Of a DNA stretch of 64,000 nucleotides, positions 13,433 through 64,000 are shown piece by piece (the first letter of the stretch is position 1; every line of letters begins with the position of its first letter). Below the pieces are notes generated by a model. That model saw only the letters and a list, made by a program, of their open reading frames with translations, was not told the origin of the DNA and did no database searches. This DNA comes from Candidatus Latescibacterota bacterium (GTDB lineage Bacteria > Latescibacterota > MWCZ01): NCBI GenBank assembly GCA_022706085.1, contig JAKJDF010000003.1:338879-402878 (forward strand), read 5' to 3'. The position numbers and the translations under genes are program-made.

Positions 13433-14419
13433 TCAGGCGGCGCGACTTACCGGGCCACTGGTTTGCTTTGGAAGACCGACGGCTGCGCACACAGCGGCAA
13501 TAGCGACTGAAAGCTGATCATCGTCCGGTTCGCGTGTCGTGAGACGCTGCAACCAGAGTCCCGGTTTCGAAATGTAACGCGCCCAGCGTGAATTCCGGGA
13601 TTTTCCCGTCGCCTTCAAAACCTCGTAGCCAAGACCCGCAACGACCGGGAGACAGGCGAGGTGCAGGAGAAAACGCGTCTGGAGACCCGGCCACTTGCCC
13701 GCACAAACTGCGTAGAAGGAGTCAGTCATCGCGTAGAACGCAATCGCCACCGCCACGACGAGGAAAACGAAACTGGTTCCGCAACGGGGATGGAAACGCG
13801 AGAACCTTCTTGCCGTCTCCGCCGTGAGTTCCGAGTCCAATCCCGATTCGAACGCGGCCACTGCCTTGTGTTCCGCGCCGTGGTACGCAAACACGCGCTT
13901 CACGTCCGCGATTTTTCCAATCGCCCAGAGGTAGAAAAGAAACACCAGAATGCGTACTGTGCCGGCGAACAGATTGTACGCCACCGGATGGTTGGTCAGG
14001 CCGGCGAGAGTGGCGAATGCCATAGGCAGGAACACAAAAAGGCCAACCCCGAGCACGAACGATACCACAAAAAGAAGCGCCTCCGCCGGCGATACCCGAT
14101 CCTTCACAGGGGTATCGCACCCATCGGAGGCTGCGACGTTCGCGCTGTACGTCAAAGCATTCAGGCCGATGCCAAGCATTTCAAAAAAAGAAACGACGCC
14201 ACGCAAAACGGGCAGCGATAACCCGCGTCGGCGCGCCGCCAGGTTCACGTAGCCCCGGGTTTCAACGGTGATTCCACGAGGCGTGCGCAAGGCGATGGCA
14301 ATGAGCCGGGGAGAACGTATCATGACCCCTTCGATCAGCGCCTGGCCGCCGACCGAAAGATCGAGCCTGGTTCTGTCTGTATTCGAATCCGTGCAACGTT
14401 CGGGGCGTGGAGGTTCCAT
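13433..14419 (-). CDS. DUF1385 family membrane protein (YqhQ-like)
   Basis: VGGQALIEGVMIRSP N-terminus and YHGAEHK motif typical of DUF1385. Conserved position between rpmE and prfA. Confidence 0.75.
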   Translation of the reverse strand: MEPPRPERCTDSNTDRTRLDLSVGGQALIEGVMIRSPRLIAIALRTPRGITVETRGYVNLAARRRGLSLPVLRGVVSFFEMLGIGLNALTYSANVAASDGCDTPVKDRVSPAEALLFVVSFVLGVGLFVFLPMAFATLAGLTNHPVAYNLFAGTVRILVFLFYLWAIGKIADVKRVFAYHGAEHKAVAAFESGLDSELTAETARRFSRFHPRCGTSFVFLVVAVAIAFYAMTDSFYAVCAGKWPGLQTRFLLHLACLPVVAGLGYEVLKATGKSRNSRWARYISKPGLWLQRLTTREPDDDQLSVAIAAVCAAVGLPKQTSGPVSRAA

Positions 14420-19990: not shown

Positions 19991-20257
19991 TGCAGTGTCC
20001 TCGAGTACGTTCCGGCAGGTGGCAGATTGGCGTTCGTGGGAGAAAGACTTCCGGGAAACGGAAAGTGATTGACACTATCAGAAAATCGCCCTCGGAGACT
20101 GTTAACGTCAAGGGCTCATCCGGCGTCAGCGGCTTGTGCAAAACGCAGTGACTGTTGCATTTTCAACACTGCGGGAGGCCAGCGCTCATCTAGGCCCTGA
20201 AAAAGGACTCCGGGCGCACAGGTACAGGCTTTTGTAACCTTGCAGGAGACAACCGAA

Positions 20258-21748
20258 ATGGCGGCGTCGAGGAAAATGATCGCCATTGATCTGGGTGCGT
20301 CAAGCGGACGGACGATTCTGGGCGAACTGGGGAAGAAACTCAGCCTGAGGGAGATTCACCGGTTTCCGAACGGACCGGTTTCCGATAGCGGACGGATGCG
20401 CTGGGACTTCGACCGTCTCTGGCAATCGGTGCAGGAAGGCATCCGGCGGGCCTCGGCAAATGCCGGCGGAGACATTGCGAGCCTTGGCCTGGACACATGG
20501 GGCGTAGACTACGGCCTTCTGGGCGAGGACGGGCGATTGCTGGAACCGCCCGTTCACTATCGGGATTCGCGCACGAACGGGATGATGGATTTTGCGTTCA
20601 AAAGGGTGCCACGCAAAGAGATATACGAAACGACGGGTCTGCAGTTTCTTCAACTGAATACGCTTTATCAATTGCTCGCGGAACAGACGTCAGGCTCGGG
20701 GCTTCTCGAGAAGGCGAAAACGCTGCTGATGATCCCCGACGTTTTTGATTACCTCCTGACGGGGATCGCAAAAGCGGAATTCACGGATGTCACCACCACT
20801 CAGTGTTACGATCCTCGAGCCCGGGGGTGGGCTCGCCCCCTGCTCGAACGCCTGGGAATTCCGACGCACTTCTTGCCGGAGATCATTCCGCCGGGTACAC
20901 CGCTTGGCGCCGTCCGCCCGGAATTGGCCGCCCGTCTGGAGTTGCACGGCGCCAGAGTCATCGCGCCCGGATGTCACGATACGGCCTCCGCGGTGGCGGC
21001 AGTTCCGGCGCGTGAAGGCGGGAAATGGGCGTATTTGAGCTCGGGAACGTGGTCGTTGATGGGCGTGGAGCTTCCAGAACCACACATTACGGAGACCGCG
21101 CTCGCGTACAACTTTACGAATGAAGGTGGCATCGGGGGCACGTTCCGGTTCCTGAAAAACATCAGCGGTCTCTGGCTGCTTCAGGAATGTCTCAGATACT
21201 GGCGAGAACATGATGGTGAGGACATTTCATATGCCGAGGCAGTCGCGCGTGCGAAAGCGGCGCGCCCGTTCCAGTCCTGGGTCGACCCTGACGCGCCGGA
21301 CTTCAACACGCCGGCTTCGATGCCGGAAGCGATTTCTCAATATTGCTCGAACACCGGGCAGGTGGTGCCCCGGACCAGGGATGAGATTCTGCGTACCGTA
21401 TTTGAGAGCCTTGCCCTCAAGTATCGGTCGGTATTTGACATGCTGAGGGAAATGGTCGGCGGCATTCAGGTGCTTCACATTGTCGGCGGAGGATCGGCGA
21501 ACGAGTTGTTGAACCAGTTTTCCGCCAACGCGCTCGGAGTTCAGGTTCTCGCCGGGCCCGTGGAAGCGACGGCGATTGGCAATTTGATGGTGCAGGCGAT
21601 GGCTCTTGGAGAAGTTCGCTCAACGGCGGAAATCAGAACAGTCGTACGGGATTCGTTCCCCGTTACTTTGTTCGAGCCGCAGGATTCTGGCGACTGGGAG
21701 GACGCGTACGGACGCTGGCGGGAGGTGATCGTGAAATCTGTCGCTTAG
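20258..21748 (+). CDS. rhaB: FGGY-family sugar kinase, rhamnulokinase-like
   Basis: IAIDLGASSGR N-terminal motif, FGGY kinase architecture. AGGAG RBS 9 nt upstream of the ATG at 20258. Confidence 0.65.
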   Translation: MAASRKMIAIDLGASSGRTILGELGKKLSLREIHRFPNGPVSDSGRMRWDFDRLWQSVQEGIRRASANAGGDIASLGLDTWGVDYGLLGEDGRLLEPPVHYRDSRTNGMMDFAFKRVPRKEIYETTGLQFLQLNTLYQLLAEQTSGSGLLEKAKTLLMIPDVFDYLLTGIAKAEFTDVTTTQCYDPRARGWARPLLERLGIPTHFLPEIIPPGTPLGAVRPELAARLELHGARVIAPGCHDTASAVAAVPAREGGKWAYLSSGTWSLMGVELPEPHITETALAYNFTNEGGIGGTFRFLKNISGLWLLQECLRYWREHDGEDISYAEAVARAKAARPFQSWVDPDAPDFNTPASMPEAISQYCSNTGQVVPRTRDEILRTVFESLALKYRSVFDMLREMVGGIQVLHIVGGGSANELLNQFSANALGVQVLAGPVEATAIGNLMVQAMALGEVRSTAEIRTVVRDSFPVTLFEPQDSGDWEDAYGRWREVIVKSVA

Positions 21749-21911
21749 TACGGTAGGCACTGAAATTGTCGGGAACGCCGCTGTTTTCACAACGTCCTGA
21801 AAAACTCGAACACTGCATCTGCGGGGTGCCACCGAACGGAATCTGAACGGTTTGAGTGGTCAAAGGTTAAAAAAGGGGGGCAGGGAAACGGACACGCTCT
21901 GGCAGGCAGAC

Positions 21912-23342
21912 ATGGAAGCAACGGAACGCGTCAAAGGAACGAACGGGACCGTACTCATCGTCGATGATGATCCGGCAATTCGCAGGTTGCTGGCGGCCGC
22001 GCTGGAAAGAGCGGGTTTTCAGGTGCGGCAAGCGGAGGGATACCGCCAGTGCTATGGCGAGATGAGTGACACGGCAAGCGTTGATGCAGTCCTTCTCGAC
22101 ATCATGTTACCCGAAGTCAACGGGCTGGAAATCCTGCGCCATTGTTCCAAACTGGATTCGCCGCCCGCTGTAGTGATGATGACGGCTTCAACGGATGTCT
22201 CGGACGCCGTCAATGCCCTGAAATTAGGCGCGTTTGACTACCTGATAAAACCGGATGACACGAGCAATTTGCCGAAGCTTACCGGCGTATTGAGGAACGC
22301 CGTCTCCTTCACGCGCTCAGAGCGCGAGATCGTTCGGTTGAGGCGGGAACTGGTAGCGCGCAACCGCCCGGCGGACATTGTTGGCACCTCGGCGCCCATG
22401 CAACGAGTTTTCGAGGCAATCCGCCAGGTTGCCGACAGCGATGCGTCCGTTCTGATCACGGGGGAGAGCGGCACGGGAAAGGAACTGGTGGCAAAGGCGA
22501 TCCACGAGGCAAGTTCTCGCTCCAGGGGGCCTTTTGTTGTCGTAAATTGCTCGGCGATCCCCGTTACGCTCATTGAAAGCGAGCTGTTTGGTCATGAAAA
22601 AGGAGCATTTACAGGCGCAATAACTCAAAAGAGGGGCAAATTCGAGATCGCGCACGGCGGGACGATTTTCCTCGACGAGATAGGAGACATGGATTCCGGT
22701 TCGCAGACGCGATTGCTGCGTGTGCTCCAGGAGCAGGCGTTCGAACGGGTCGGCGGCACGCACCCCATCAATGTCGACGTTCGGTTCATTGCCGCAACCA
22801 ATCAGGACCTGCAGGTGCGTGTTCGAGAGTCGGCATTCCGATTGGACCTGTTCTACCGGATCGCGGTCTTTACCATCTCATTACCGCCGCTGCGGGATCG
22901 GACGGAGGATATTCCGCTCCTGGCCGCACATTTCCTGAACCTTCACGCATCTAGAGCCCGCAAAAAAGCTGCCGGGTTCGAACCGGCGGCGATGAACGCT
23001 CTTATCCGGCACGCATGGCCGGGGAATGTTCGGGAACTGGGCAATGTGATCCAGCACGCGGTGATCGTCTCAGAAGGACCAACCATCCGGCTTGAACATC
23101 TCCCGCCACACCTGGTGCAGGAAGGTGCCTCCAAAACGCCGGCAGGAGAGAACGTGGTGCTTCTTCGAGATCCTTCCACACACGATATTCGTCCACTGAA
23201 AGAAGTGGAAAAGGAGGTGATGAAAAGAGCGCTTGAGGCCACGGAGGGCAACTTTGCGCAGGCCGCCATGAAGCTCCAGATCGGCCGGGCCACGCTGTAC
23301 CGCAAGGTGAAGGAATACGGACTGGACGCGGATGGAACTTGA
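21912..23342 (+). CDS. sigma-54-dependent response regulator (NtrC/Fis family)
   Basis: Receiver domain (LIVDDD), AAA+ sigma-54 activator core (GESGTGKE, GAFTGA-type loop EKGAFTGA), C-terminal HTH. Confidence 0.85.
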   Translation: MEATERVKGTNGTVLIVDDDPAIRRLLAAALERAGFQVRQAEGYRQCYGEMSDTASVDAVLLDIMLPEVNGLEILRHCSKLDSPPAVVMMTASTDVSDAVNALKLGAFDYLIKPDDTSNLPKLTGVLRNAVSFTRSEREIVRLRRELVARNRPADIVGTSAPMQRVFEAIRQVADSDASVLITGESGTGKELVAKAIHEASSRSRGPFVVVNCSAIPVTLIESELFGHEKGAFTGAITQKRGKFEIAHGGTIFLDEIGDMDSGSQTRLLRVLQEQAFERVGGTHPINVDVRFIAATNQDLQVRVRESAFRLDLFYRIAVFTISLPPLRDRTEDIPLLAAHFLNLHASRARKKAAGFEPAAMNALIRHAWPGNVRELGNVIQHAVIVSEGPTIRLEHLPPHLVQEGASKTPAGENVVLLRDPSTHDIRPLKEVEKEVMKRALEATEGNFAQAAMKLQIGRATLYRKVKEYGLDADGT

Positions 23343-23410
23343 CGGTTCTGGGCGTACATGTTCCCCATCTCTGCTCCGTGGGTGTCCAAAAGGCGATGAT
23401 GGAGGGCAGT

Positions 23411-23929
23411 ATGTCTCCTTACGTAAATCGAATACGGCGTGCACTGAAGCTTGATCCCGCATTGTTCGAGGAAGTGGAAGCGGACAAGCATGCAACCGGC
23501 GAGGCCGTTGGGGTGGTCCTGTTATCAAGTGGCGCGACGGGCCTTGGAGCGATTCCTCAAACAAGCATCGGATCGCTCGCGATTCTGTTTGTTGCGGTGC
23601 TTGTCGGGTGGTGTGCGTGGGTATATGTGACATTCGTGTTCGGGGTTCAGGTGTTTTCTGTACCCGAGACAGATGTTGACGTGGGCCAGATAGTACGCAC
23701 ATCGGGGTACGCTGCTGCACCCGGTCTTTTCGCGATTTTCGGCATCATTCCCCTTCTCTACGTCCCCGCGCTTGCGCTGGCGCTGGTGTGGATGCTCGCC
23801 GCAATGGTTGTTTCGGTGCGTCAGGCGTTCGACTACTCCAGTACCTGGCGTGCTCTCGGTGTGTGCGCGGCCGGTTGGATAGTTCTTGCGGCGTACATCG
23901 GTGGGGTTGTTCTCCTGTTGCAGTGCTGA
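23411..23929 (+). CDS. Yip1-domain integral membrane protein
   Basis: About 5 TM helices after a charged N-terminus, Yip1/DUF1282-like. GGAGGG RBS before the ATG at 23411. Confidence 0.5.
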   Translation: MSPYVNRIRRALKLDPALFEEVEADKHATGEAVGVVLLSSGATGLGAIPQTSIGSLAILFVAVLVGWCAWVYVTFVFGVQVFSVPETDVDVGQIVRTSGYAAAPGLFAIFGIIPLLYVPALALALVWMLAAMVVSVRQAFDYSSTWRALGVCAAGWIVLAAYIGGVVLLLQC

Positions 23930-23964
23930 AAACGGCGAACACCGGATTGGAGAGGACACGAAGC

Positions 23965-25245
23965 ATGGAAGCGTCCCGTGTGCGGGTTTTGGCTTCCCTT
24001 TCCGCGCTCGTGTTTTCCACTGTTGTGTTTGCAGTAGCCGGGCTTTTTGTGGACCGGCAGCTACAGGCGCTGCTGGACGACCGTTTGGCAGAGGCGTTGC
24101 TGGCACAGGCGAAATCGGTTGCGGGGGCAGTTTTTCTGGAAAACACGACGGACTCGGTCGCACTGGCGCTGGCAACGGGTACCCTTTCAGAGACACGGGA
24201 GCAGACCGGTGCGGAACTGGTAGTGCTCCTGGACGCGCGCGGCAGGGTATTGTTCACTGACCCTCCAGTTCTCGGAGAACGTCCGTACATCGATCTGGAT
24301 AACGCCGCCCTGGCGTCCGCCATAACTGGAAAACCGGCATGCGGGGAGCGTTTCCGTATCGGCAACGTGGATCTGAAAACTGCCTTTGCGCCGGTTTTCA
24401 GCCCGTTCGGCGAAGTAGTGGCAATCGTGGGAATCGAAGCGCCGGCGGATTTCTTCGGAGCACTTCGTGACGTGAGGCGGGCGCTTGTTATTACGCTGGG
24501 TCTGGGCATGGCGCTGGTCGCGGGGTTGGTCGTTGTGGTATGGCATTTCTGGGCGCGGAGTGAGGCTTCTGAACGCGCGCTGTGGGATAGTCAGCAGTTG
24601 GCCATGATCGGGCAGATGACCGCGACGATGGCCCACGAGGTGCGGAACCCGCTCGGGATCATCAAAGCGGCGGCAGAACGGATCCGCCGTAAGTACGGCG
24701 ATGGAACGGAGCTTTTCGATTTCATTCCCGATGAAGTGGATCGACTCGACCGTCTTACGGAATGGTATCTGCGATTCGCCAAACCTGGCGATTTGAGGCT
24801 TACGAAAGCCAGAATGGGGCCGATCCTCCAGGATTCGGTCTCCCGTGTTCGCGGTGAACTGGAAGCGGCAGCGATCGAGGTGGTCGTAGAGGATCTGGCG
24901 GAATCGGAATGCCTGGTGGACTATGATCGCCTTGTGCAGGTGAACATCAACATCCTTCTGAACGCCCGGCAGGCGATAGGCTCAAACGGGAGGATCGAGG
25001 CAAAAGTATTCGAAAAATCGGACGTGATAAGGGTGGAGGTGAAAGACAACGGACCCGGGATTCCGCCCCGTGTTCAGCCCAACGTGTTCCAACCATTCTT
25101 CACCACGAAAACCGCGGGCAGTGGACTGGGGCTTCCCGTCGTGAAGCAGGTCGTTGAGGCCCTTGGCGGCAGAGTGGGGCTGACCAGCAGGCCGGGAGAT
25201 GGAACCACGGTGTGGTATGAACTCCCGTGTGCGAAAGACAACTGA
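23965..25245 (+). CDS. sensor histidine kinase with periplasmic sensor domain
   Basis: Two TM segments flanking an approx. 190-aa loop, H-box HEVRNPL, N/G-box HATPase (DNGPGIP, GSGLGL). GGAGAGGA RBS. Confidence 0.85.
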   Translation: MEASRVRVLASLSALVFSTVVFAVAGLFVDRQLQALLDDRLAEALLAQAKSVAGAVFLENTTDSVALALATGTLSETREQTGAELVVLLDARGRVLFTDPPVLGERPYIDLDNAALASAITGKPACGERFRIGNVDLKTAFAPVFSPFGEVVAIVGIEAPADFFGALRDVRRALVITLGLGMALVAGLVVVVWHFWARSEASERALWDSQQLAMIGQMTATMAHEVRNPLGIIKAAAERIRRKYGDGTELFDFIPDEVDRLDRLTEWYLRFAKPGDLRLTKARMGPILQDSVSRVRGELEAAAIEVVVEDLAESECLVDYDRLVQVNINILLNARQAIGSNGRIEAKVFEKSDVIRVEVKDNGPGIPPRVQPNVFQPFFTTKTAGSGLGLPVVKQVVEALGGRVGLTSRPGDGTTVWYELPCAKDN

Positions 25246-25269
25246 TCGAAATCGGAAGAAGGACGATAG

Positions 25270-25608
25270 ATGCAGCGCGACAGAGTTGGCAAAATCGTTC
25301 CCATAGGAAAAGGTCTGTGTCGCGTGATCGTTCGCTCGCGCAAACTGGCGGAGAGACTTTCCAGCGTGCCCGGTGTAGAGGTCAGAGCGCAGGACGCGGA
25401 ATACCTGGGGTGGTGGGTGATATTTCCGGAGTCGATGCGCGCGTTGATCGAACCGGTGTTCCGTGAGAAAACGATCGTGACCGAACACGCCGCGCAGTTG
25501 TCCCTGCTGGACATCGATGCTGGTGATGCCGGCAATTCAAAAGGGGAACCGCCTGAGAAATGCGGCGATGGCACGGGAGAGGGGAATGGCTCGGGTACTC
25601 CTGGTTGA
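25270..25608 (+). CDS. small hypothetical protein (weak call)
   Basis: 112-codon ORF in the HK-to-RR gap with high GC3; overlaps the RR start by about 20 nt; no recognisable family. Confidence 0.25.
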   Translation: MQRDRVGKIVPIGKGLCRVIVRSRKLAERLSSVPGVEVRAQDAEYLGWWVIFPESMRALIEPVFREKTIVTEHAAQLSLLDIDAGDAGNSKGEPPEKCGDGTGEGNGSGTPG

Positions 25609-26905
25609 CGACGAACGGAAGCTCGCGGTACTGCTTGCGGGAGAACTGACTGATGCGGGGCACTCGGTGCTTACCGCGCAAGACGGGCGAACAGCGATTC
25701 AACTGGTAAAGGAACAGGCTTTTGATGTTGTCGTAACGGACATCCGTATGGAGGAGGTTGACGGTCTCGCGCTTCTCAGGGCGGTGAAAGACACATGTCC
25801 GGACACGGACGTGATCATGATGACGGCGTACGCCAATATCGAGACAACAGTGGAAGCTCTGAGAAAGGGAGCGGCGGATTACCTCATCAAGCCCTTCCCA
25901 CCGGAAGAACTTATTCTTGCCGTTGAGCGCGTTGCAGAACGGCAGAGGCTTGCCCTCGAGAACAGGCAACTCAAACGTGAACTCGCCTCAGGGGAATCCG
26001 AATTCATTGCTGCGAGCGACGCCATGAAAACCGTTGCCGATCTGGTGTCCCGGATCGCGAAAACGGACACGAGCGTGCTGATCACCGGCGCAAGCGGGAC
26101 GGGGAAGGAAGTCGTTGCAAGGGCCATTCACGCTCGCAGCAAGAGGAAGGACGGGCCGTTTGTCGCTGTGAACTGCGCGGCTTTGCCGGAGCCGTTGCTC
26201 GAGAGTGAGCTTTTTGGGCACGAACGTGGAGCCTTCACCGGGGCGGACCGACGCAAACTGGGGAGATTTGAGCTGGCTGACAAAGGCACCCTGTTCCTCG
26301 ATGAGATTGGAGAAATCGGTCAGAGCATTCAGGTCAAGCTTCTGCGCGCACTGGAGACGAAGACATTCGAGCGTGTGGGAGGGACCGCGAACATCAGCGT
26401 GGATGTGCGGATCATTGCCGCCACGAACAAGGATCTTCCCACAGCGATCGCGAACAAACAGTTCCGAGAAGACCTGTACTACCGCCTGAACGTATTCCCG
26501 ATAAGCCTGCCGCCGTTGAAAGAGCGGATTGCGGATATCCGCGCGTTAGCGGCCCATTTCGTGGCGCCGACCGGGCTGAAACTCTGTGACGCCACGCTCA
26601 GGCGGCTTGAGGAATACGAGTGGCCGGGGAATGTGCGTGAGCTCCGCAATGTTCTGGAACGCGCGGTCATATTGTGCGACGGCGATACGATTCTGCCAGA
26701 ACACCTGTCGCTGGACCCCGTCTCTCGCCGGACGGGGAACGATAGCGACGTGGCTGACCTGAACCTGGAAAGAAGGGAACGGAAAGCGCTGGAGGAGGCA
26801 TTGGCCCGCGCGAAAGGGAACAAGGCGGAGGCTGCGCGGTTGCTGGGAATCAGCAGGAGAGCCCTTTACTCACGCGCGGCGAGCCTCGGCATTACCCTGA
26901 CGTAA
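25586..26905 (+). CDS. sigma-54-dependent response regulator (NtrC/Fis family), second copy
   Basis: Receiver (LLVDDE), AAA+ core ([16 protein letters not shown]), HTH. GGGAGAGGGG RBS before the ATG at 25586. Confidence 0.85.
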
Positions 26906-27197: not shown

Positions 27198-28271
27198 CTA
27201 CGCAAAGTTCACAAGTGAGCTATCCCCGAGAACGAATCTATTCTCTGAAGGCATGAGTCGTTCGTGGGTGATCCGGACGTTCTTGCCGATGAGACTCGAC
27301 CCGATACGGGATTTGATACCGGAAATGACGCTTTTCTCCATTATGATGCTGTATTCCACCTCACTCCCTTCTATCGTTACACCCGGCCCAATGGAGGTAT
27401 AGGGTCCTATATATGCGTCACGGATCATCGAACCGGGGCCGACGATGACCGGCCCGCGTATGATGCTTCTTTCAACGACCGCGGAAGACTCGATTACCAC
27501 ACGCCCGACAACGGAAGATTGGCCGTCCACGTTTCCGCGGCACGAAGCCTCGGTGATTTTTTCCAGCAGTAACCGGTTGAGGTCTATCATGTCTTCCGGC
27601 TTACCGGTGTCCTTCCACCACCCTTCCAACATCAGCGGCTGAACCACAAGGTTCCGGGCGATCAGTTCCCGTAATGCATCGGGCAGTTCCAGCTCGCCTC
27701 GGGGGGAGGGCTTCACCTTTCCGATGACATCGAAAATGCACGGCTGGAACACGTAAATACCGGCGACCGCAAGGTTACTCTTGGGTGATTCCGGTTTCTC
27801 TTCGAGACCTACGATTCTCCCATTTTCGATTTCCGCTATGCCAAATTGGTGCGGGTTATCTGTCTTGTGCAGAACGACGACTGACGCCGGGTGGTTTTTT
27901 GCGAATGCCTCCACGACGGAGGTGATACCATTCTCTACGAGGATGTCGCCGAGAACCATCAGAAACGGTGCACCAGCCGCCCAGTCTTGTGCTAACGATA
28001 CAGCATGTGCTGTGCCAAGAGGGTTATCCTGGACGATATAGTCCACCTCGACACCCCAGCGCGAACCATCGCCCACCGCGCCTTCGATTTCGTGCCGGTT
28101 TACCCCGACCACTATGCCGATCTCCGTAATTCCGGCCTTGTGGAGCATTTCGATCGTGTAGTGGATCAGTGGCTTGTTGGCAACCGGCAGAACGTGCTTG
28201 GCCGAGGTGTAAGTGATGGGACGCAATCTGCTTCCCATACCGGCACAGAGGAGCAACCCTTTTTTTAGCAT
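27198..28271 (-). CDS. sugar-1-phosphate nucleotidyltransferase with C-terminal left-handed beta-helix (long-form RmlA/GlmU-like)
   Basis: [14 protein letters not shown]... (G-x-G-T/S-R-L nucleotide-binding signature), then hexapeptide-repeat C-terminus. Confidence 0.7.
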
Positions 28272-58635: not shown

Positions 58636-61600
58636 TCAGGTGTTGCCAGTCGCGAGCGCGCTGAGTGTCCGGCGCAGCGACGCTAACTGAACCGGGTTCC
58701 ACTTGGAGTTGCGCGCCGCACGGACGGCCTCCTCCAATGCCTCGGTGAGAATTTCTGAACGGTTTACGTCACCAGCAATTCGCGCTGTTTCCGCCGCATT
58801 TTGAACCGCCCACATACGAGCGTAGTCCTCGATGCCGATGCGTATCGCCTGGACGCGAACGCTTGGGACTGGCACGCGTGCTCCGCCGTACACCATCTCC
58901 CAATCATTGTTGTTCGGATTTGGCCCCTGCCAGAGGTCCACGCCCCTGGTGCAGTACGACCAGTAACCGACACCGGTAAGGCCGAGTTCCCAGGCGGTCC
59001 AGATCATCTCCCAGTAGTACTTCACTCCCACCATATCCTTGACGCCGCCATACGCTTCGTAAGTCCACAGTGTTTTTCCCGTGGTCTTGAGGTAGTTGTA
59101 ACGTTCCCTCGATGCCTCTGTAAGGACTGATCCAAAACTCAACTGGAAAATGTCAACGACGTCAATCACCCGTCGCAGGTCAGCGACCGTCATACCCTTG
59201 AAAGGATCGGTGTACACCTGGACCCGGGGGTCTATTCGCTTGAACAGTCTGGCCTGGTATTCCAGCTCGTCAATGAGCTTGCCGCCGAGCAGCCCTGGCT
59301 CATCTACCGGGTAGAACGCCCAACTCTCGTACCCGAAGCCCTTCTCCGCAAGGTGAGTTACCCACAGCGGGAGATACTGCGAAAACGCGCGCTCCCACTC
59401 CGGGGTGTGGGAACTAGGTGCGTCGGAGGCCGGGTGAAGGCCGCCGGGACTGATGAGCATCATATCGGTGGGCCGCAGTCTGTCCAGGATCCAATCGTGC
59501 TCGGACCAGTCTACTTCGCCTTGCAGGTTGCCTGCATTGTCGTACGCCACTTTCGGCAATCGCGTGATGACGAATACGTTGGTGTGATGCGCCTGCATAT
59601 CGCGGATTGTAGCTTCCTCGATGTCGCGCAACGGGGAGGAGTGAGGGTAACCCCAGTTGCAGAAGCGAACGGGCATCTGTTCCGGTAACTCGAAGGAGGA
59701 AACCGTCCAATGGATGGGAATCTCCCACGTAGTGCCCGCAGGAGTAAGCGCCCTCAAATGGAGCGCCGTCGAATACTCGCCAGCCGGGAGATCACCGGTG
59801 TCAACATCTACCCACAATCGTGCAGAGCTGGTGGCTGAAACCCCTACAAGGCCCGCTTCGCCGAGGTCGGGCAGGGCGTCGGGTCCCATTTTTGACGTTG
59901 ATGTCGGTACCCAGGTGACCTTCCGCAATGTAAGATGGGTGACCGCATCAATTCTCTGGCCGGTGGGGCACGCAATCCGGTCAAGAGACGCGCGAATCTC
60001 GAGGGGTACGTCAAGCAGGTTCGCGATCTGCACGACAAAGACCTCGTGTCCCCGCATGTCTGTCGTCAGAGTGATCCGTGGAGCGCAGTCCCCGGCAGGC
60101 ACATCGAGCTCCGGCGCGAAGGCGCTCCAGGGGTCTTCCACAATCCACGGTAAGAACTCGGTGGGGGCGTCTCGTTCCGCCGTCAACGCAACTCGTCTCT
60201 TCTGCAGCTCTGCTTCGCGGCGGAGTCGCCCGAGGAAGTGCCTGATTTCTCCGACAAATGCGCGGCGTTGTTCACAGGAACTTGTTTCGTATTGAGGCAG
60301 ACGCTCCAGAATATCGTGCCACGTGAGCTTGCGTGTGCGCGTTCCCCGTGCGAGGTCGTTCGTGATGCCGTACCCACCGGCAATGCCTGAGAGGTGCTTC
60401 AAAAGGCGCTCAGCTTCGGCCTGCTCATCCTCAAAAAGGGTTACGGAGAACTGGCTGGAAGAGGCGCCGATCGGGGTACGATCGGCGTCGCGATACATCG
60501 TTGCCTCCACCGTGTATTCGCCGCAGGCGAGGATTTCGAACTCAACCGTGCGGTCCGAATCCGCAACTCCGAAGTGCGTGACCCCGTCAGCACCCAGGAG
60601 TGAAACGCTGGCGTACGTCCCCGACGGAAGGTCGTAATCAAGGGTGTTTGACCCGAGCTGCAATTGATTCTTCGGCCCGGCCACAGCAGGAAGATCACGG
60701 AGTTTCTCAGTTTTTCTGCCGAGCAGATTCCCGGTGCGCAGATTGCTGGCGCGCCCATCGAATCCGCCGCGGCTTGTCGGCCAATCCGTCTTGCCTCCAA
60801 GGCATTTGAAACAACTCAGGGCTCCAGTGGTAGCGTTCACTGTGAAGATTTCAATTATTCCATCGCCGTCCAGATCAGCGGCAACGGGTGCCCCGATCAT
60901 CGTACCCTCAAGACGGTAATTCTCGATCTGCACCCCCTCAGAATCGAAAACACGGAGAACTGTTCCGGCGCGTTGAACGAGCAGCGATTCCAACTTGCCG
61001 TCGCCGTCAATATCTACCAGTGAAGGCGCAAATGGTTGGTCACCATCTCCCGAATCCATGTTTGCCCAGATGAGCGTGCCATCCGACGCGACGGCCTGGA
61101 TCGCACGACCGGCGTTGACAAATACGATTTCCGTAACGCCATCGGCGTTAATATCGCCCGCGGCAATGCCGATTTCGAGGCTTCCGGCTCCCGCGCCACG
61201 GCAAGTCCACTCGACCTCACCCTCCGGAGTGATGCAGCGAAGGACGTCGTCCATAGACCCTGCGAGAACTCGTGGGCCTTGCCCGAAATCAACCAGTATC
61301 GGTGCGGAGAATTCAGCGGATGCATCTGTTTTGACGCGCCACAGGAGTTTTCCATCGAAGTCGATGCAGTAGATGAACGAATCTCCTGCACAGAAGACGA
61401 TTTCATCCTCGCCGTCGCGATCGATATCACCTATCGCCGCGGGCCCCACGGCTCGCACGTTCGTGTGGAACTGCCACGCATGGTCCCCGGAATCCAGCGC
61501 AAGACCGGTGACACGCCCCTTCGCATCAGTCACGATGACACGGGAAACGCTCCCGCCGAACGCTATTCCTATGCTGTTGAAGGGGCTGGTCTCGGCCTCG

Positions 61601-61893
61601 ACGTCGGACGCCCAGACGAGCGTACCGTTGTCTGAAAGGCGGATCGCCTTTCCCGCTTCCGTGGCCGCGAGCACGCATCTGTCGGGACTTTCCCCGGAGG
61701 ACACGGAAACCCACGTCCCCAACTTCGAACCTACCGGCGTTCTCCAGTGCTCATTGCGATCTGAATCGATAGCGACTATGTGGCCCGATTTCGTTCCGCA
61801 GACCAGGAGTGTTCCGTCCTGCGTGGGGAGGACTGCCGGACAACCCAGAAATCCGCCAGTTCCGAACGTCCACAGATGGGTGAGTGAACTCAT
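58636..61893 (-). CDS. FG-GAP/beta-propeller repeat protein fused to DUF4091-like glycoside-hydrolase-like domain
   Basis: Repeated DIDGDG/DINADG/DLDGDG (FG-GAP-like) units in the N-terminal half. C-terminal half (WAFYPVDEP...YWSYC) resembles DUF4091. GGAGGG RBS before the ATG at 61893; an ATG at 61920 overlaps the dapB stop (ATGA). Confidence 0.55.
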   Translation of the reverse strand: MSSLTHLWTFGTGGFLGCPAVLPTQDGTLLVCGTKSGHIVAIDSDRNEHWRTPVGSKLGTWVSVSSGESPDRCVLAATEAGKAIRLSDNGTLVWASDVEAETSPFNSIGIAFGGSVSRVIVTDAKGRVTGLALDSGDHAWQFHTNVRAVGPAAIGDIDRDGEDEIVFCAGDSFIYCIDFDGKLLWRVKTDASAEFSAPILVDFGQGPRVLAGSMDDVLRCITPEGEVEWTCRGAGAGSLEIGIAAGDINADGVTEIVFVNAGRAIQAVASDGTLIWANMDSGDGDQPFAPSLVDIDGDGKLESLLVQRAGTVLRVFDSEGVQIENYRLEGTMIGAPVAADLDGDGIIEIFTVNATTGALSCFKCLGGKTDWPTSRGGFDGRASNLRTGNLLGRKTEKLRDLPAVAGPKNQLQLGSNTLDYDLPSGTYASVSLLGADGVTHFGVADSDRTVEFEILACGEYTVEATMYRDADRTPIGASSSQFSVTLFEDEQAEAERLLKHLSGIAGGYGITNDLARGTRTRKLTWHDILERLPQYETSSCEQRRAFVGEIRHFLGRLRREAELQKRRVALTAERDAPTEFLPWIVEDPWSAFAPELDVPAGDCAPRITLTTDMRGHEVFVVQIANLLDVPLEIRASLDRIACPTGQRIDAVTHLTLRKVTWVPTSTSKMGPDALPDLGEAGLVGVSATSSARLWVDVDTGDLPAGEYSTALHLRALTPAGTTWEIPIHWTVSSFELPEQMPVRFCNWGYPHSSPLRDIEEATIRDMQAHHTNVFVITRLPKVAYDNAGNLQGEVDWSEHDWILDRLRPTDMMLISPGGLHPASDAPSSHTPEWERAFSQYLPLWVTHLAEKGFGYESWAFYPVDEPGLLGGKLIDELEYQARLFKRIDPRVQVYTDPFKGMTVADLRRVIDVVDIFQLSFGSVLTEASRERYNYLKTTGKTLWTYEAYGGVKDMVGVKYYWEMIWTAWELGLTGVGYWSYCTRGVDLWQGPNPNNNDWEMVYGGARVPVPSVRVQAIRIGIEDYARMWAVQNAAETARIAGDVNRSEILTEALEEAVRAARNSKWNPVQLASLRRTLSALATGNT

Positions 61894-61916
61894 TGCGTTC
61901 CCTCCGGTCTGAGGTT

Positions 61917-62732
61917 TCATCGCAAAGCCAGAACATCAACCATGTCGTACAACCCTTGTGGTTTGCCGACAACCCATTTTGCAGCACGGAGTGCCCCCAT
62001 CGCAAACGTGTCGCGGCTCTGGGCCCGGTGGCGCAATTCTACTGACTCGCCGACGCCCCCGAACAAGACGTCGTGCTGGCCGACGATATCCCCCGCCCGC
62101 AAGGAGTGCATCCCGATCTCATGAATGGGACGTTCGCCGGTGATGCCGGCCCTTCCGTGGCGGACGGATTTTTCGAAATCCCAGTTCCATGTTTTCGCTA
62201 CTGCTTTTGCCAGTGAGATGGCGGTCCCGCTGGGCGCGTCGCATTTCTGTGTGTGGTGAGCTTCCACTATCTCGCAATTGAACCGCGGTCCGAGAAGACG
62301 CGCCGCTTCCTCAACCAGGCGCAAAAGCACGGTGACGCCTACACTGAAATTGCTTGTCTTCACGACTGCAATCCCTCGCGCTGCATCTTTGAACGCCTGT
62401 TCCTGCTCAGACGACAGGCCCGTAGTTCCCAGCACAAGCGGCTTTGCTGAGGCCCTGCAGATGGCGACCTGCTCCACCGTGGCTTCGGGGTCGTTGATGA
62501 AGGCAATTGCGACGTCTGCGCCTTTGATGGCATCAGCCAGATTGTCGACGACGGGAACCGAAAGACGCCCGACGCCCGCTATTTCGCCAGCGTCGCAACC
62601 GATTGCCGGGTTGCCAGGTTTCTCCACAGCTCCCGCGATATTGACTTCGGTGTCTTCGTGAGCCAGGGCAATGACGCGCCGACCCATTCTTCCTGCCGAT
62701 CCGCATACTGCGATTCGCACCATGAACCTCAT
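61917..62732 (-). CDS. dapB: 4-hydroxy-tetrahydrodipicolinate reductase
   Basis: VRIAVCGSAGRMGR N-terminal Rossmann motif and DapB C-domain. Alternative ATG 3 codons in. Confidence 0.85.
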   Translation of the reverse strand: MRFMVRIAVCGSAGRMGRRVIALAHEDTEVNIAGAVEKPGNPAIGCDAGEIAGVGRLSVPVVDNLADAIKGADVAIAFINDPEATVEQVAICRASAKPLVLGTTGLSSEQEQAFKDAARGIAVVKTSNFSVGVTVLLRLVEEAARLLGPRFNCEIVEAHHTQKCDAPSGTAISLAKAVAKTWNWDFEKSVRHGRAGITGERPIHEIGMHSLRAGDIVGQHDVLFGGVGESVELRHRAQSRDTFAMGALRAAKWVVGKPQGLYDMVDVLALR

Positions 62733-62865
62733 GCTCCTGTTGTCGTGTGGCGCCAGGCCGCGGGTCCCGAAGTGGACCCGATTCGTGCATTCCTAGTATA
62801 GGACCGGACTGGCGATTGGAGGAAGTGCTCTGCTCGCTGCGAATTGTCCGGTTTGGGTGCGATAG

Positions 62866-62900
62866 TGCATTACTGGCAAGATAATGCAGTTATTGCATTA
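62866..62900 (+). promoter_or_regulatory. candidate enhancer (UAS) for a sigma-54 activator: TGCATTA - 9 nt - TAATGCA - 5 nt - TGCATTA
   Basis: Three 7-nt half-sites seen directly, including a perfect TAATGCA-N5-TGCATTA palindrome about 85 bp upstream of the -24 element, in a locally AT-rich patch. Confidence 0.5.
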
Positions 62901-62974
62901 TACACTGTTGCGGAGCGGTGTCGGAAAGCGCAGCAGTGTCCTTTTTATGGGCAACAATCGCCGAAGCGCAACAA

Positions 62975-62990
62975 TGGCACACTCGTTGCA
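62975..62990 (+). promoter_or_regulatory. sigma-54 (RpoN) -24/-12 promoter TGGCAC-N5-TTGCA
   Basis: Exact match to consensus TGGCAC N5 TTGCW (TGGCACACTCGTTGCAT), oriented toward the small ORF at 63112. Confidence 0.65.
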
Positions 62991-63111
62991 TGCTGGAAGT
63001 CCTGGTTCTTCGAAGTGCGAGCGTTAGTCTGAGCACGGAACCCTGGAAAAAGCCTGTCGCGCAAAGCGAGGGCGAACAACAAGAAAATGGAAAGACTCAA
63101 AGGAGCGAACC

Positions 63112-63390
63112 ATGACGTTATACAGTCAGCCCAACGCGTTCGGGATCACCGGAATTTCCCAATGTCCCATATACGACCCTGGTTGCGGTTCACGCGACGA
63201 TTGGTTCGGGTTGTCGTCCGAATCTCCCGTGTTTACCGACATGTCTCACATTGCAGAGCTGGCAGCGCTCGACCTCCGGTCAAGGGGGAAAACGCGCAAT
63301 CTCAGGAATGCCGAGGATCGGGAAAAGGTTCTTTCCAAAGATCGTCGGGGGCGGGGGTGGTCTCATCCGTCAGAGCGCGACCGAAACTGA
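63112..63390 (+). CDS. small hypothetical protein (92 aa, CPIYDPGC motif), putative sigma-54-dependent
   Basis: ATG with AAAGGAG RBS 7 nt upstream; downstream strong hairpin; no family recognised. Confidence 0.45.
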   Translation: MTLYSQPNAFGITGISQCPIYDPGCGSRDDWFGLSSESPVFTDMSHIAELAALDLRSRGKTRNLRNAEDREKVLSKDRRGRGWSHPSERDRN

Positions 63391-63406
63391 TGTGAACGCC
63401 CTTCAT

Positions 63407-63454
63407 GAAAGGAAAGGAACCGTGGCCTAAGTGGCACGGTTCCTTTCCTTTTCC
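63407..63454. terminator. strong hairpin, likely bidirectional terminator
   Basis: GAAAGGAAAGGAACCGTG(G)CC-TAAGT-GGCACGGTTCCTTTCCTTTTCC: about 19-bp stem with a U-rich 3' arm; lies between the small ORF stop and the convergent tsaC stop. Confidence 0.65.
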
Positions 63455-63462
63455 TGGTTGCG

Positions 63463-64000
63463 CTACGCATCCACGATTTCGCCACTCCACCATTCCCGCA
63501 GAGTGGGCAGATCAACAGCGCCCCGCCGCAGCACCAGCAGTGTGGCCCCGACGGGCCGCACAAGCGTTGACGGGAGATCTCCCGGCGCGCGTTCTCCCTC
63601 AAACACCCCCGCGAGGCCTTGGGGGAACTGAGCTTCCACCTCTTCCGCCGTTCGCGCGGGCGGCATGTTCTGACGGTTTGCGCTTGTCGCCGTGATGGCG
63701 CCTCCCGCGGAATCAGCGAGCATCCTCGCGCCGGGGTGGGAAGGTACGCGGACCGCGACGGTACCAGTCCCGCCGGTAATCACGCGCGCGACCGAGTCTT
63801 TCGCCGGGAGTACGACCGTGAGCGGCCCGGGCCACGCGAGGGAAATCAGGCGTACGGTGGCGGGGGTCAAGGAAATTGCGAAGCTGGACACCACTTCGGC
63901 CTTTCCGAGGATGAGGCTTACCGGTTTGTCGGTGTCTCTTCCTTTCAGTCTGACGAGGCGAGTCAGCGCCGCCATATCGGACGGGAGGACGGCGAGCCCG
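63463..64000 (-). CDS. tsaC: L-threonylcarbamoyladenylate synthase (YrdC/Sua5 family), N-terminus beyond window
   Basis: KGRDTDKPVSLIL and ...SANRQNMPPARTAEEV blocks typical of the YrdC domain. The frame runs open to the window end, so this is the 3' part only. Confidence 0.7.
   Translation of the reverse strand, partial: GLAVLPSDMAALTRLVRLKGRDTDKPVSLILGKAEVVSSFAISLTPATVRLISLAWPGPLTVVLPAKDSVARVITGGTGTVAVRVPSHPGARMLADSAGGAITATSANRQNMPPARTAEEVEAQFPQGLAGVFEGERAPGDLPSTLVRPVGATLLVLRRGAVDLPTLREWWSGEIVDA

Follow-up and report, generated by a model that had tools for sequence, protein, structure and literature searches.

What controls transcription in the roughly 730-bp gap between dapB and tsaC in a Candidatus Latescibacterota bacterium, and what is transcribed there? 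The question is raised by a 64,000-nucleotide stretch of contig JAKJDF010000003.1 (the window), near the end of which an initial annotation had described a sigma-54 promoter, palindromic upstream sites, a small open reading frame (ORF) and a hairpin, all of which we found at the same positions. As far as we are aware, there is no experimental knowledge of how genes are regulated in Latescibacteria (WS3), a phylum of which no member is in culture. Our analysis indicates that the gap probably holds a self-contained transcription unit in which an activator-dependent sigma-54 promoter drives an orphan gene for a small protein. Each DNA element, the extent to which it is conserved and the protein-coding nature of the ORF were read directly from the window and its related loci.

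The sigma-54 element and its upstream dyads

The sigma-54 element is an exact -24/-12 sequence (TGGCACactcgTTGCA, 62975-62990, plus strand), with the GG and GC dinucleotides exactly 10 bp apart. When both strands of the window were scanned, this was the single exact match to TGGCAC-N5-TTGCW; the chance expectation from dinucleotide-preserving shuffles was 0.06, and six of 100 shuffles contained at least one match. The two matches with one mismatch (at 24086 and 28017) are both intragenic, those with two mismatches, other than the one at 13563, lie inside long ORFs, and a relaxed scan of the window for further sigma-54 promoters returned only intragenic or weak matches. The exact element is intergenic and oriented toward the small ORF, 121 nt before its ATG. 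Moreover, the exact TGGCAC-N5-TTGCA sequence is present in all 18 related loci for which upstream sequence was available, 119-121 nt before the ATG, or 88 nt before it in the distant locus L015, where an exact element with other N5 bases (TGGCACggctgTTGCA) precedes a gene whose product is 36% identical to that of the window. In alignments, the block GCAACAATGGCACACTCrTTGCAT is invariant while bases a few nt upstream drift, and substitutions in the promoter block are limited to spacer bases (G/A at 62985; C to G in L014, aligned with 62982). Both the promoter scan and the comparison between lineages therefore bear out the -24/-12 element of the initial annotation.

Upstream of this element, a perfect palindrome had been noted about 85 bp away in an AT-rich patch, together with a third half-site. 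The palindrome TAATGCA-gttat-TGCATTA is present at 62882-62900, its centre 85.5 bp from the GG, and the patch (62860-62905) is 37% G+C compared with 59% for the window. Another TGCATTA lies at 62866-62872, and three of the five TGCATTA copies in the window fall within 35 bp. When the lineages were aligned by anchoring on the promoter, the conserved unit proved to be not the TAATGCA/TGCATTA heptamers but two tandem 13-bp dyads, TGC-N7-GCA-N6-TGC-N7-GCR (62866-62897), with centres 19 bp apart; the supposed third half-site is thus the left half of a second full dyad. The TGC/GCA cores of dyad 1 are kept in all lineages, including L015 (TGCcacaagtGCA), apart from the right half in L007 and L017, and dyad 2 reads TGC-N7-GCR in every lineage. 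In the window the exact tandem pattern is found a single time, and of the 20 loci fetched 15 have it, L015 among them.

The position of the dyads is conserved more strictly than the DNA that separates them from the promoter. Their centres lie 104.5 and 85.5 bp upstream of the -24 GG, the latter distance being 85.5 bp in four close lineages and 84.5 bp in L015, and the spacer measures 77, 77, 77, 77 and 76 bp (the last in L015) despite an identity of 52-69% between close lineages, which is about that of synonymous sites. Within the spacer, an A/T-rich patch followed by TGGGC is partly conserved among close lineages. A further comparison is provided by L014 and L001, which are 98-100% identical in the flanks and about 50% diverged over a gap-free patch of ~125 bp (2731-2855 in both), corresponding to about 62840-62965 of the window; this patch begins slightly upstream of dyad 1 and ends shortly before the -24 block. 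The runs surviving in this patch are TGC, AATGGCA, TGCAATT, TTGCGC, GTG and TGGGC, and the dyad cores and their spacing are kept; judging from the alignment, a fourth allele may have been imported here by recombination, or the regulatory region may be locally hypervariable.

In the standard arrangement, the binding sites for enhancer-binding proteins (EBPs) are tandem dyads some 80-150 bp upstream of a sigma-54 promoter. By sequence, the dyads described here have the features of an upstream activating sequence (UAS), that is, two dyad-symmetric sites ~80-150 bp upstream with conserved phasing and a spacer that is free to vary. Sites held at a fixed distance across drifting DNA are what a looping activator requires, which is the most compelling reason to assign the dyads to this promoter. 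The same two points, the fixed distance of dyad 2 to the -24 element (85.5/84.5 bp) across changing sequence and the standard tandem arrangement, make it rather unlikely that the dyads are operators of a non-EBP regulator (a repressor or activator of dapB, or a repressor modulating the sigma-54 promoter), with the activating EBP binding elsewhere or not binding DNA at all. What that reading has in its favor is that the intergenic region holding the dyads is divergent, with the dapB start ~135-165 bp away from them, that the dapB-proximal segment (62745-62863) is itself 82-92% conserved and holds a fourth TGCATT at 62786, and that no EBP could be tied to the dyads. The L015 contig starts at the dyads, and linkage to dapB is not checkable there.

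The dapB-proximal half of the intergenic region, whose identity between lineages compares with 52-69% for the UAS-promoter spacer, also contains an inverted repeat (GGGTCC...GGACCC, 62762-62779) and is presumably the dapB promoter and 5' untranslated region. A sigma-70-like match on the minus strand (62924 to 62897, CCGACA-16-TATAAT, 10/12) is directed toward dapB and shares bases with dyad 2; the -10 hexamer has not been kept in L001 or L007, and the match is probably due to chance.

The small gene and its predicted transcript

The ORF downstream of the promoter was described initially as an unannotated frame of 92 codons with an AAAGGAG-type ribosome-binding site. The frame and its Shine-Dalgarno (SD) sequence, AAGGAG six nt before the ATG and conserved in the lineages, are as described. 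Its product, however, is identical to GenBank OQB42117.1 ('hypothetical protein BWY06_00671', Candidatus Latescibacteria bacterium ADurb.Bin168), indicating that gene callers already predict it. Among three close lineages (synonymous divergence 0.33-0.47), the ratio of nonsynonymous to synonymous substitution rates (dN/dS, Nei-Gojobori) is 0.19-0.22 in frame, compared with 0.9-1.5 and 3.4-6.4 in the other two frames, and substitutions fall mainly at third codon positions (e.g., 2/12/25 by position between the window and L001). The ratio is 0-0.14 for residues 1-43 and 44-59, on a par with the comparison genes dapB and tsaC (0.11 and 0.15 for the same genome pair), and ~0.45 for the tail (residues 60-92); the G+C content at third codon positions (0.62) is like that of neighboring genes. 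On these sequence comparisons, the 92-codon ORF is a genuine protein-coding gene under purifying selection in its own frame only, with homologues in related loci, so that the initial call is upheld on both conservation and codon support. An overlapping 102-aa frame starting within the leader (an upstream ORF, ATG at 63087) was rejected; its ATG is absent in L001 and L007 (AAAAGG) and its dN/dS exceeds 3.

To establish the distribution of the gene, a word index over 5.8 billion proteins was searched and an exhaustive HMMER profile search was run over 1.84 billion representatives. Four clusters at 90% identity (P0001-P0004) were found in total, 97, 86, 83 and 36% identical to the product of the window and all exactly 92 aa long; a further match to a low-complexity repeat protein (P0005) was considered spurious. 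Among the GTDB species representatives, one has the gene, and scans of GTDB genomes and JGI metagenomes added close relatives only. The most distant homologue, P0004 (locus L015), is likewise encoded convergently with a tsaC gene, whose product is 71% identical to that of the window, indicating that the small gene is old within the clade. By the same sequence comparison, the small gene overall evolves much faster than its neighbor tsaC.

Since transcription from sigma-54 promoters starts ~12 nt after the GC of the -12 element, the transcript would begin near 63001 with a leader of ~111 nt, in agreement with the ~110 nt first proposed. The features of the unit and its flanking genes are listed in Table 1.

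Table 1. Positions of the features of the dapB-tsaC region in the window.
Feature	Position	Strand	Basis or remarks
dapB	61917-62732	-	DapB_N and DapB_C domains
UAS dyad 1, TGCattactgGCA (TGC-N7-GCA)	62866-62878		Centre at about -129 from the predicted start
UAS dyad 2, TGCagttattGCA	62885-62897		Core of the palindrome 62882-62900; centre at about -110
UAS-promoter spacer	62898-62974		77 bp; sequence drifts, length fixed
Sigma-54 promoter block, GCAACAATGGCACACTCGTTGCAT	62968-62991	+	-24 TGGCAC at 62975-62980, -12 TTGCA at 62986-62990
Predicted 5' leader	63001-63111	+	~111 nt; start placed ~12 nt after the -12 GC
Predicted leader elements	5'-terminal hairpin 63001-63046; short hairpin 63052-63073; A-rich stretch; SD 63100-63105	+	RNAalifold
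92-codon gene, orphan small protein	63112-63390	+	dN/dS, constant length, synteny; no family match
Intrinsic-terminator-like hairpin	63407-63452	+	18-20-bp stem, -34.5 kcal/mol, z = -6.5 versus shuffles
Sua5/YrdC/TsaC-family gene (tsaC)	63463 to window end	-	Family match

It had been suggested that the leader could also be a regulatory RNA, and sigma-54-dependent small RNA (sRNA) genes are indeed known, such as glmY/glmZ, which carry GlrR sites, and crcZ, which carries CbrB sites. The leader is 79-94% identical between lineages compared with 52-69% for the spacer, and it is more conserved than neutral spacer DNA where the two were contrasted (79-85% versus 63-69%, Fisher p 0.015-0.04). Two leader hairpins were predicted in all close lineages, with compensatory change in one of 29 pairs among these few lineages. 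The L015 leader, which is 33 nt shorter and unalignable, is predicted to fold in a like manner, with a hairpin of 46 nt at its 5' end and then a short one that has a GCAA loop; on these models, a shared structure is suggestive but unproven. Nevertheless, the folding energy of the whole leader is ordinary in the window, L001 and L015 (minimum free energy z-scores versus shuffles of -0.7, -0.7 and -1.4) and stands out only in L007 (-3.7), and a cmscan search of 62600-63600 against Rfam at E <= 10 gave only chance miRNA and lncRNA matches below gathering scores. A leader of the CsrA/RsmA type was also considered and rejected; GGA motifs are not enriched (4 versus 3.2 expected, p = 0.40), and the L015 leader has one. 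With the ORF plainly under selection at the protein level, it is distinctly improbable that the main product of the unit is RNA, whether as a cis-regulatory leader (riboswitch, protein-binding or thermosensing) or as a dual-function sRNA with a secondary peptide. The suggestion of a regulatory RNA thus comes down to modest sequence conservation, two predicted hairpins and no Rfam match, and the simplest reading of the leader is a 5' structure that stabilizes the mRNA followed by an A-rich translation-initiation region.

The hairpin after the ORF, noted initially with a stem of about 19 bp, sits between the convergent small gene and tsaC and has a U-rich run at its end. In plus-strand RNA 18 pairs are kept, A-to-G changes in the 5' arm being converted to G-U pairs, whereas minus-strand RNA forms 14 pairs, with A-C mismatches and no U-tract. 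The run after the stem is 4-8 nt and is found on the plus strand only (eight T in L007 and L017). Since the hairpin works best on plus-strand RNA with its U-run, the unit would be monocistronic.

That the sigma-54 match is instead fortuitous or a relic, with the small gene using an unrecognised promoter of another type, is very improbable: promoter types in Latescibacteria are uncharacterised, a scan of 62600-63600 with one sigma-70 consensus found no sigma-70-like promoter on the plus strand, and an exact sigma-54 match was seen in six of 100 shuffled windows, but the motif does not vary from one lineage to the next, in contrast to the drifting bases a few nt upstream, co-occurs with dyads locked to it in distance, and is retained in L015 with different N5 bases, which counts directly against a chance or relic motif.

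In all loci, the neighbors of the unit are dapB, tsaC, NIF3, a uracil-DNA glycosylase-like gene and ribulose-phosphate epimerase, and wherever contigs are long enough to judge the order is a beta-propeller protein, dapB (minus strand), the small ORF (plus), tsaC (minus) and NIF3 (plus). The first of these is, in the window, a protein of 1094 aa whose repeats are of the PQQ-like, FG-GAP and beta-propeller types (58636-61920, minus strand), which lies directly downstream of dapB and holds the same position in all long related contigs. The tsaC gene runs past the window end; relatives are 207 aa long, and the frame given for the window starts at an internal ATG and comprises only 170 codons. No modification, export or immunity genes adjoin the small ORF in the related loci. 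Since these neighbors are housekeeping genes, the context gives no functional clue and argues against a role as a bacteriocin or as a ribosomally synthesized and post-translationally modified peptide (RiPP).

The encoded protein and candidate activators

The product of the small gene matched no family significantly in Pfam, NCBIfam, PHROGs, PADLOC or PDB (the best sub-threshold matches were a non-significant E = 0.026 in PADLOC and E ~1 in a PDB profile search), as anticipated by the initial annotation, which recognised nothing like it. Both subfamilies keep the 92-aa length, the MTL... start, the final N, P7, G11, G14, S16, P19, D22 and G24, as well as W31, L34, S36, P39-V40, D43, an AE.AA motif in the central helix and W83. 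Both also have a bipartite charge, with residues 1-55 acidic (pI 4.05, net -5 to -6) and residues 56-92 basic (pI 11.7, +6 to +7). No hydrophobic segment was found (grand average of hydropathy, GRAVY, -0.89) and no signal peptide was obvious by eye, no predictor having been run. The cysteines that led the product to be described as Cys-containing are present (Cys18 and Cys25) but are no family trait, being replaced by Phe and Val in P0004. A Cys-dependent peptide (RiPP precursor, bacteriocin or metal-binding) was rejected on this ground and on the lack of adjoining modification, export or immunity genes. As a speculative best guess, the protein would be induced by a signal and act in binding or regulation, its basic tail making contact with nucleic acid or another polyanion.

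The window encodes two EBPs (21912-23342 and 25586-26905), proposed initially as candidate regulators. Both are genuine EBPs with REC-AAA+(Sigma54_activat)-HTH_8 domains and intact GAFTGA loops, and their presence suggests that the organism probably encodes sigma-54. As regulators of this promoter they are generic candidates with no dyads nearby, no better than any other EBP of the genome. They belong to a cluster (20240-26905) of an FGGY sugar kinase, EBP 1, a Yip1-domain protein, an sCache-type histidine kinase and EBP 2, which has the appearance of two adjacent sigma-54 two-component modules. The one-mismatch sigma-54-like motifs at 24086-24101 (plus strand) and 28002-28017 (minus strand) flank the EBP/histidine-kinase cluster and are intragenic, in the HisKA/HATPase kinase gene 23788-25245 and the NTP-transferase gene 27198-28271.

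A proposed mechanism and its place among sigma-54 systems

From established sigma-54 biology we infer activation by an EBP, DNA looping and the position of the start site, which would combine with the elements above as follows. Dimers of an NtrC-family EBP (with a REC or other sensor domain, an AAA+ domain and a Fis-type helix-turn-helix) would occupy the two dyads, ~129 and ~110 bp upstream of the start. The EBP would assemble into an active oligomer and loop over the 77-bp spacer, of which the length and not the sequence would be constrained, and would remodel the closed sigma-54 holoenzyme on 62975-62990 into an open complex by ATP hydrolysis. Transcription from near 63001 would then give a monocistronic, terminated mRNA of ~450 nt comprising the 111-nt leader, the SD sequence, the 92-codon ORF and the terminator, in which the 5' stem-loop and short second hairpin of the leader probably stabilize the message rather than sense a ligand. 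The product is likely to be cytoplasmic, with a core (residues 1-59) made up of an acidic Gly/Pro/Ser-rich segment and one amphipathic helix, and a basic, fast-evolving tail (residues 60-92) that may be partly dispensable.

Several observations weigh against this mechanism. Dyad 1 is imperfect in L007 and L017, where GCT replaces GCA in the right half, a one-base deviation, and inspection of the spacer by eye revealed no clear IHF consensus. Neither a tandem dyad nor a TGCATTA cluster was found near the EBP genes of the window (21852 and 25517), and the two EBP upstream regions read contain no copy of TGCATTA; in addition, rpoN itself does not lie in the window, the six-frame translation of which showed no RpoN-box motif. 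The U-run of the terminator is only four U in the window, and a simple pattern scanner did not call this terminator. AlphaFold2, run on a five-sequence alignment, predicted helices at residues 28-34, 44-59 and 67-80 in a model with a mean predicted local distance difference test (pLDDT) of 49.9 and a predicted template-modeling score (pTM) of 0.19, too poor for fold comparison, and the protein part of the explanation therefore rests on composition and conservation. Finally, in two independent assemblies (L019:887-1132 and L020:1501-1746) a 1-bp deletion (GTTCTTTCGAAAGG to GTTTTTTGAAAG, at about 63325-63332 of the window) shifts the frame and shortens the product to 74 aa, with loss of the basic tail. 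Such a loss fits the relaxed constraint on residues 60-92; it may mean that the tail can be dispensed with or that the gene is undergoing decay in the L019/L020 strain, and the gene may be dispensable in some backgrounds.

The proposed unit resembles well-studied sigma-54 systems in its regulatory design. The glnAp2/NtrC system of enteric bacteria is the archetypal sigma-54 promoter, at which a REC-AAA+-HTH_8 activator oligomerises and loops to the closed complex. Like glnAp2, the promoter described here has -24 GG and -12 GC elements and two adjacent dyads more than 100 bp upstream, with TGC...GCA outer triplets as in the glnAp2 dyads. In contrast to the NtrC dyad (17 bp, TGCACC-N5-GGTGCA), the dyads here are 13 bp long (TGC-N7-GCA); their centres are 19 bp apart rather than the ~32 bp of glnAp2, and the target is an orphan small gene rather than a nitrogen-assimilation operon. 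With glmY/glmZ and crcZ, the unit shares its short length, housekeeping neighborhood, upstream dyads, sigma-54 promoter and terminator hairpin, whereas its transcript includes a strong SD sequence and an ORF that is clearly under purifying selection, and has no Rfam match. The CbrB regulon has been described (PMC6296734).

In output, a parallel is offered by pspG of E. coli, which encodes a small protein on a monocistronic unit and depends for its transcription on sigma-54 RNA polymerase and the EBP PspF (PMC3068692, PMC2763126). Like pspG, the gene studied here would form a stand-alone unit of the sigma-54/EBP type with a sole product of less than 100 aa encoded away from its regulator; unlike PspG, an integral membrane protein, its product has no hydrophobic segment, and the two show no sequence similarity. 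Surveys of sigma-54 regulons already list hypothetical proteins among the targets (PMC4641369), so that an orphan gene driven by sigma-54 is nothing out of the ordinary in kind. A full-text search returned nothing on sigma-54 in Latescibacteria or on the motif TGC-N7-GCA, and Latescibacteria are not mentioned in a 2025 cross-phylum survey of sigma-54 regulons.

A more far-reaching reading is that the small proteins are a new family of sigma-54-controlled small regulators in one Latescibacteria clade, in which the acidic core (residues 1-59) docks on a partner (e.g., the activating EBP, sigma-54 or a ribosome/nucleic-acid complex), the basic tail binds a polyanion, and the TGC-N7-GCA tandem is the motif of an uncharacterised EBP. 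We regard this reading as unlikely. If true, the protein would be a feedback or effector arm of the system, PspA-PspF-like in logic and unrelated in sequence.

The regulatory design of the unit is thus a textbook one, and the protein alone is new, a lineage-restricted and strongly constrained orphan. Because the architecture is familiar, the gain is an experimental handle rather than a conceptual surprise: the locus offers a clean, testable case of enhancer-dependent transcription in Latescibacteria, with a delimited promoter, a candidate operator motif and a length-constrained spacer, in which the strain variation of L014 acts as a natural mutagenesis of the regulatory region. It also flags a constrained orphan protein that lies beyond naming by homology-based annotation.

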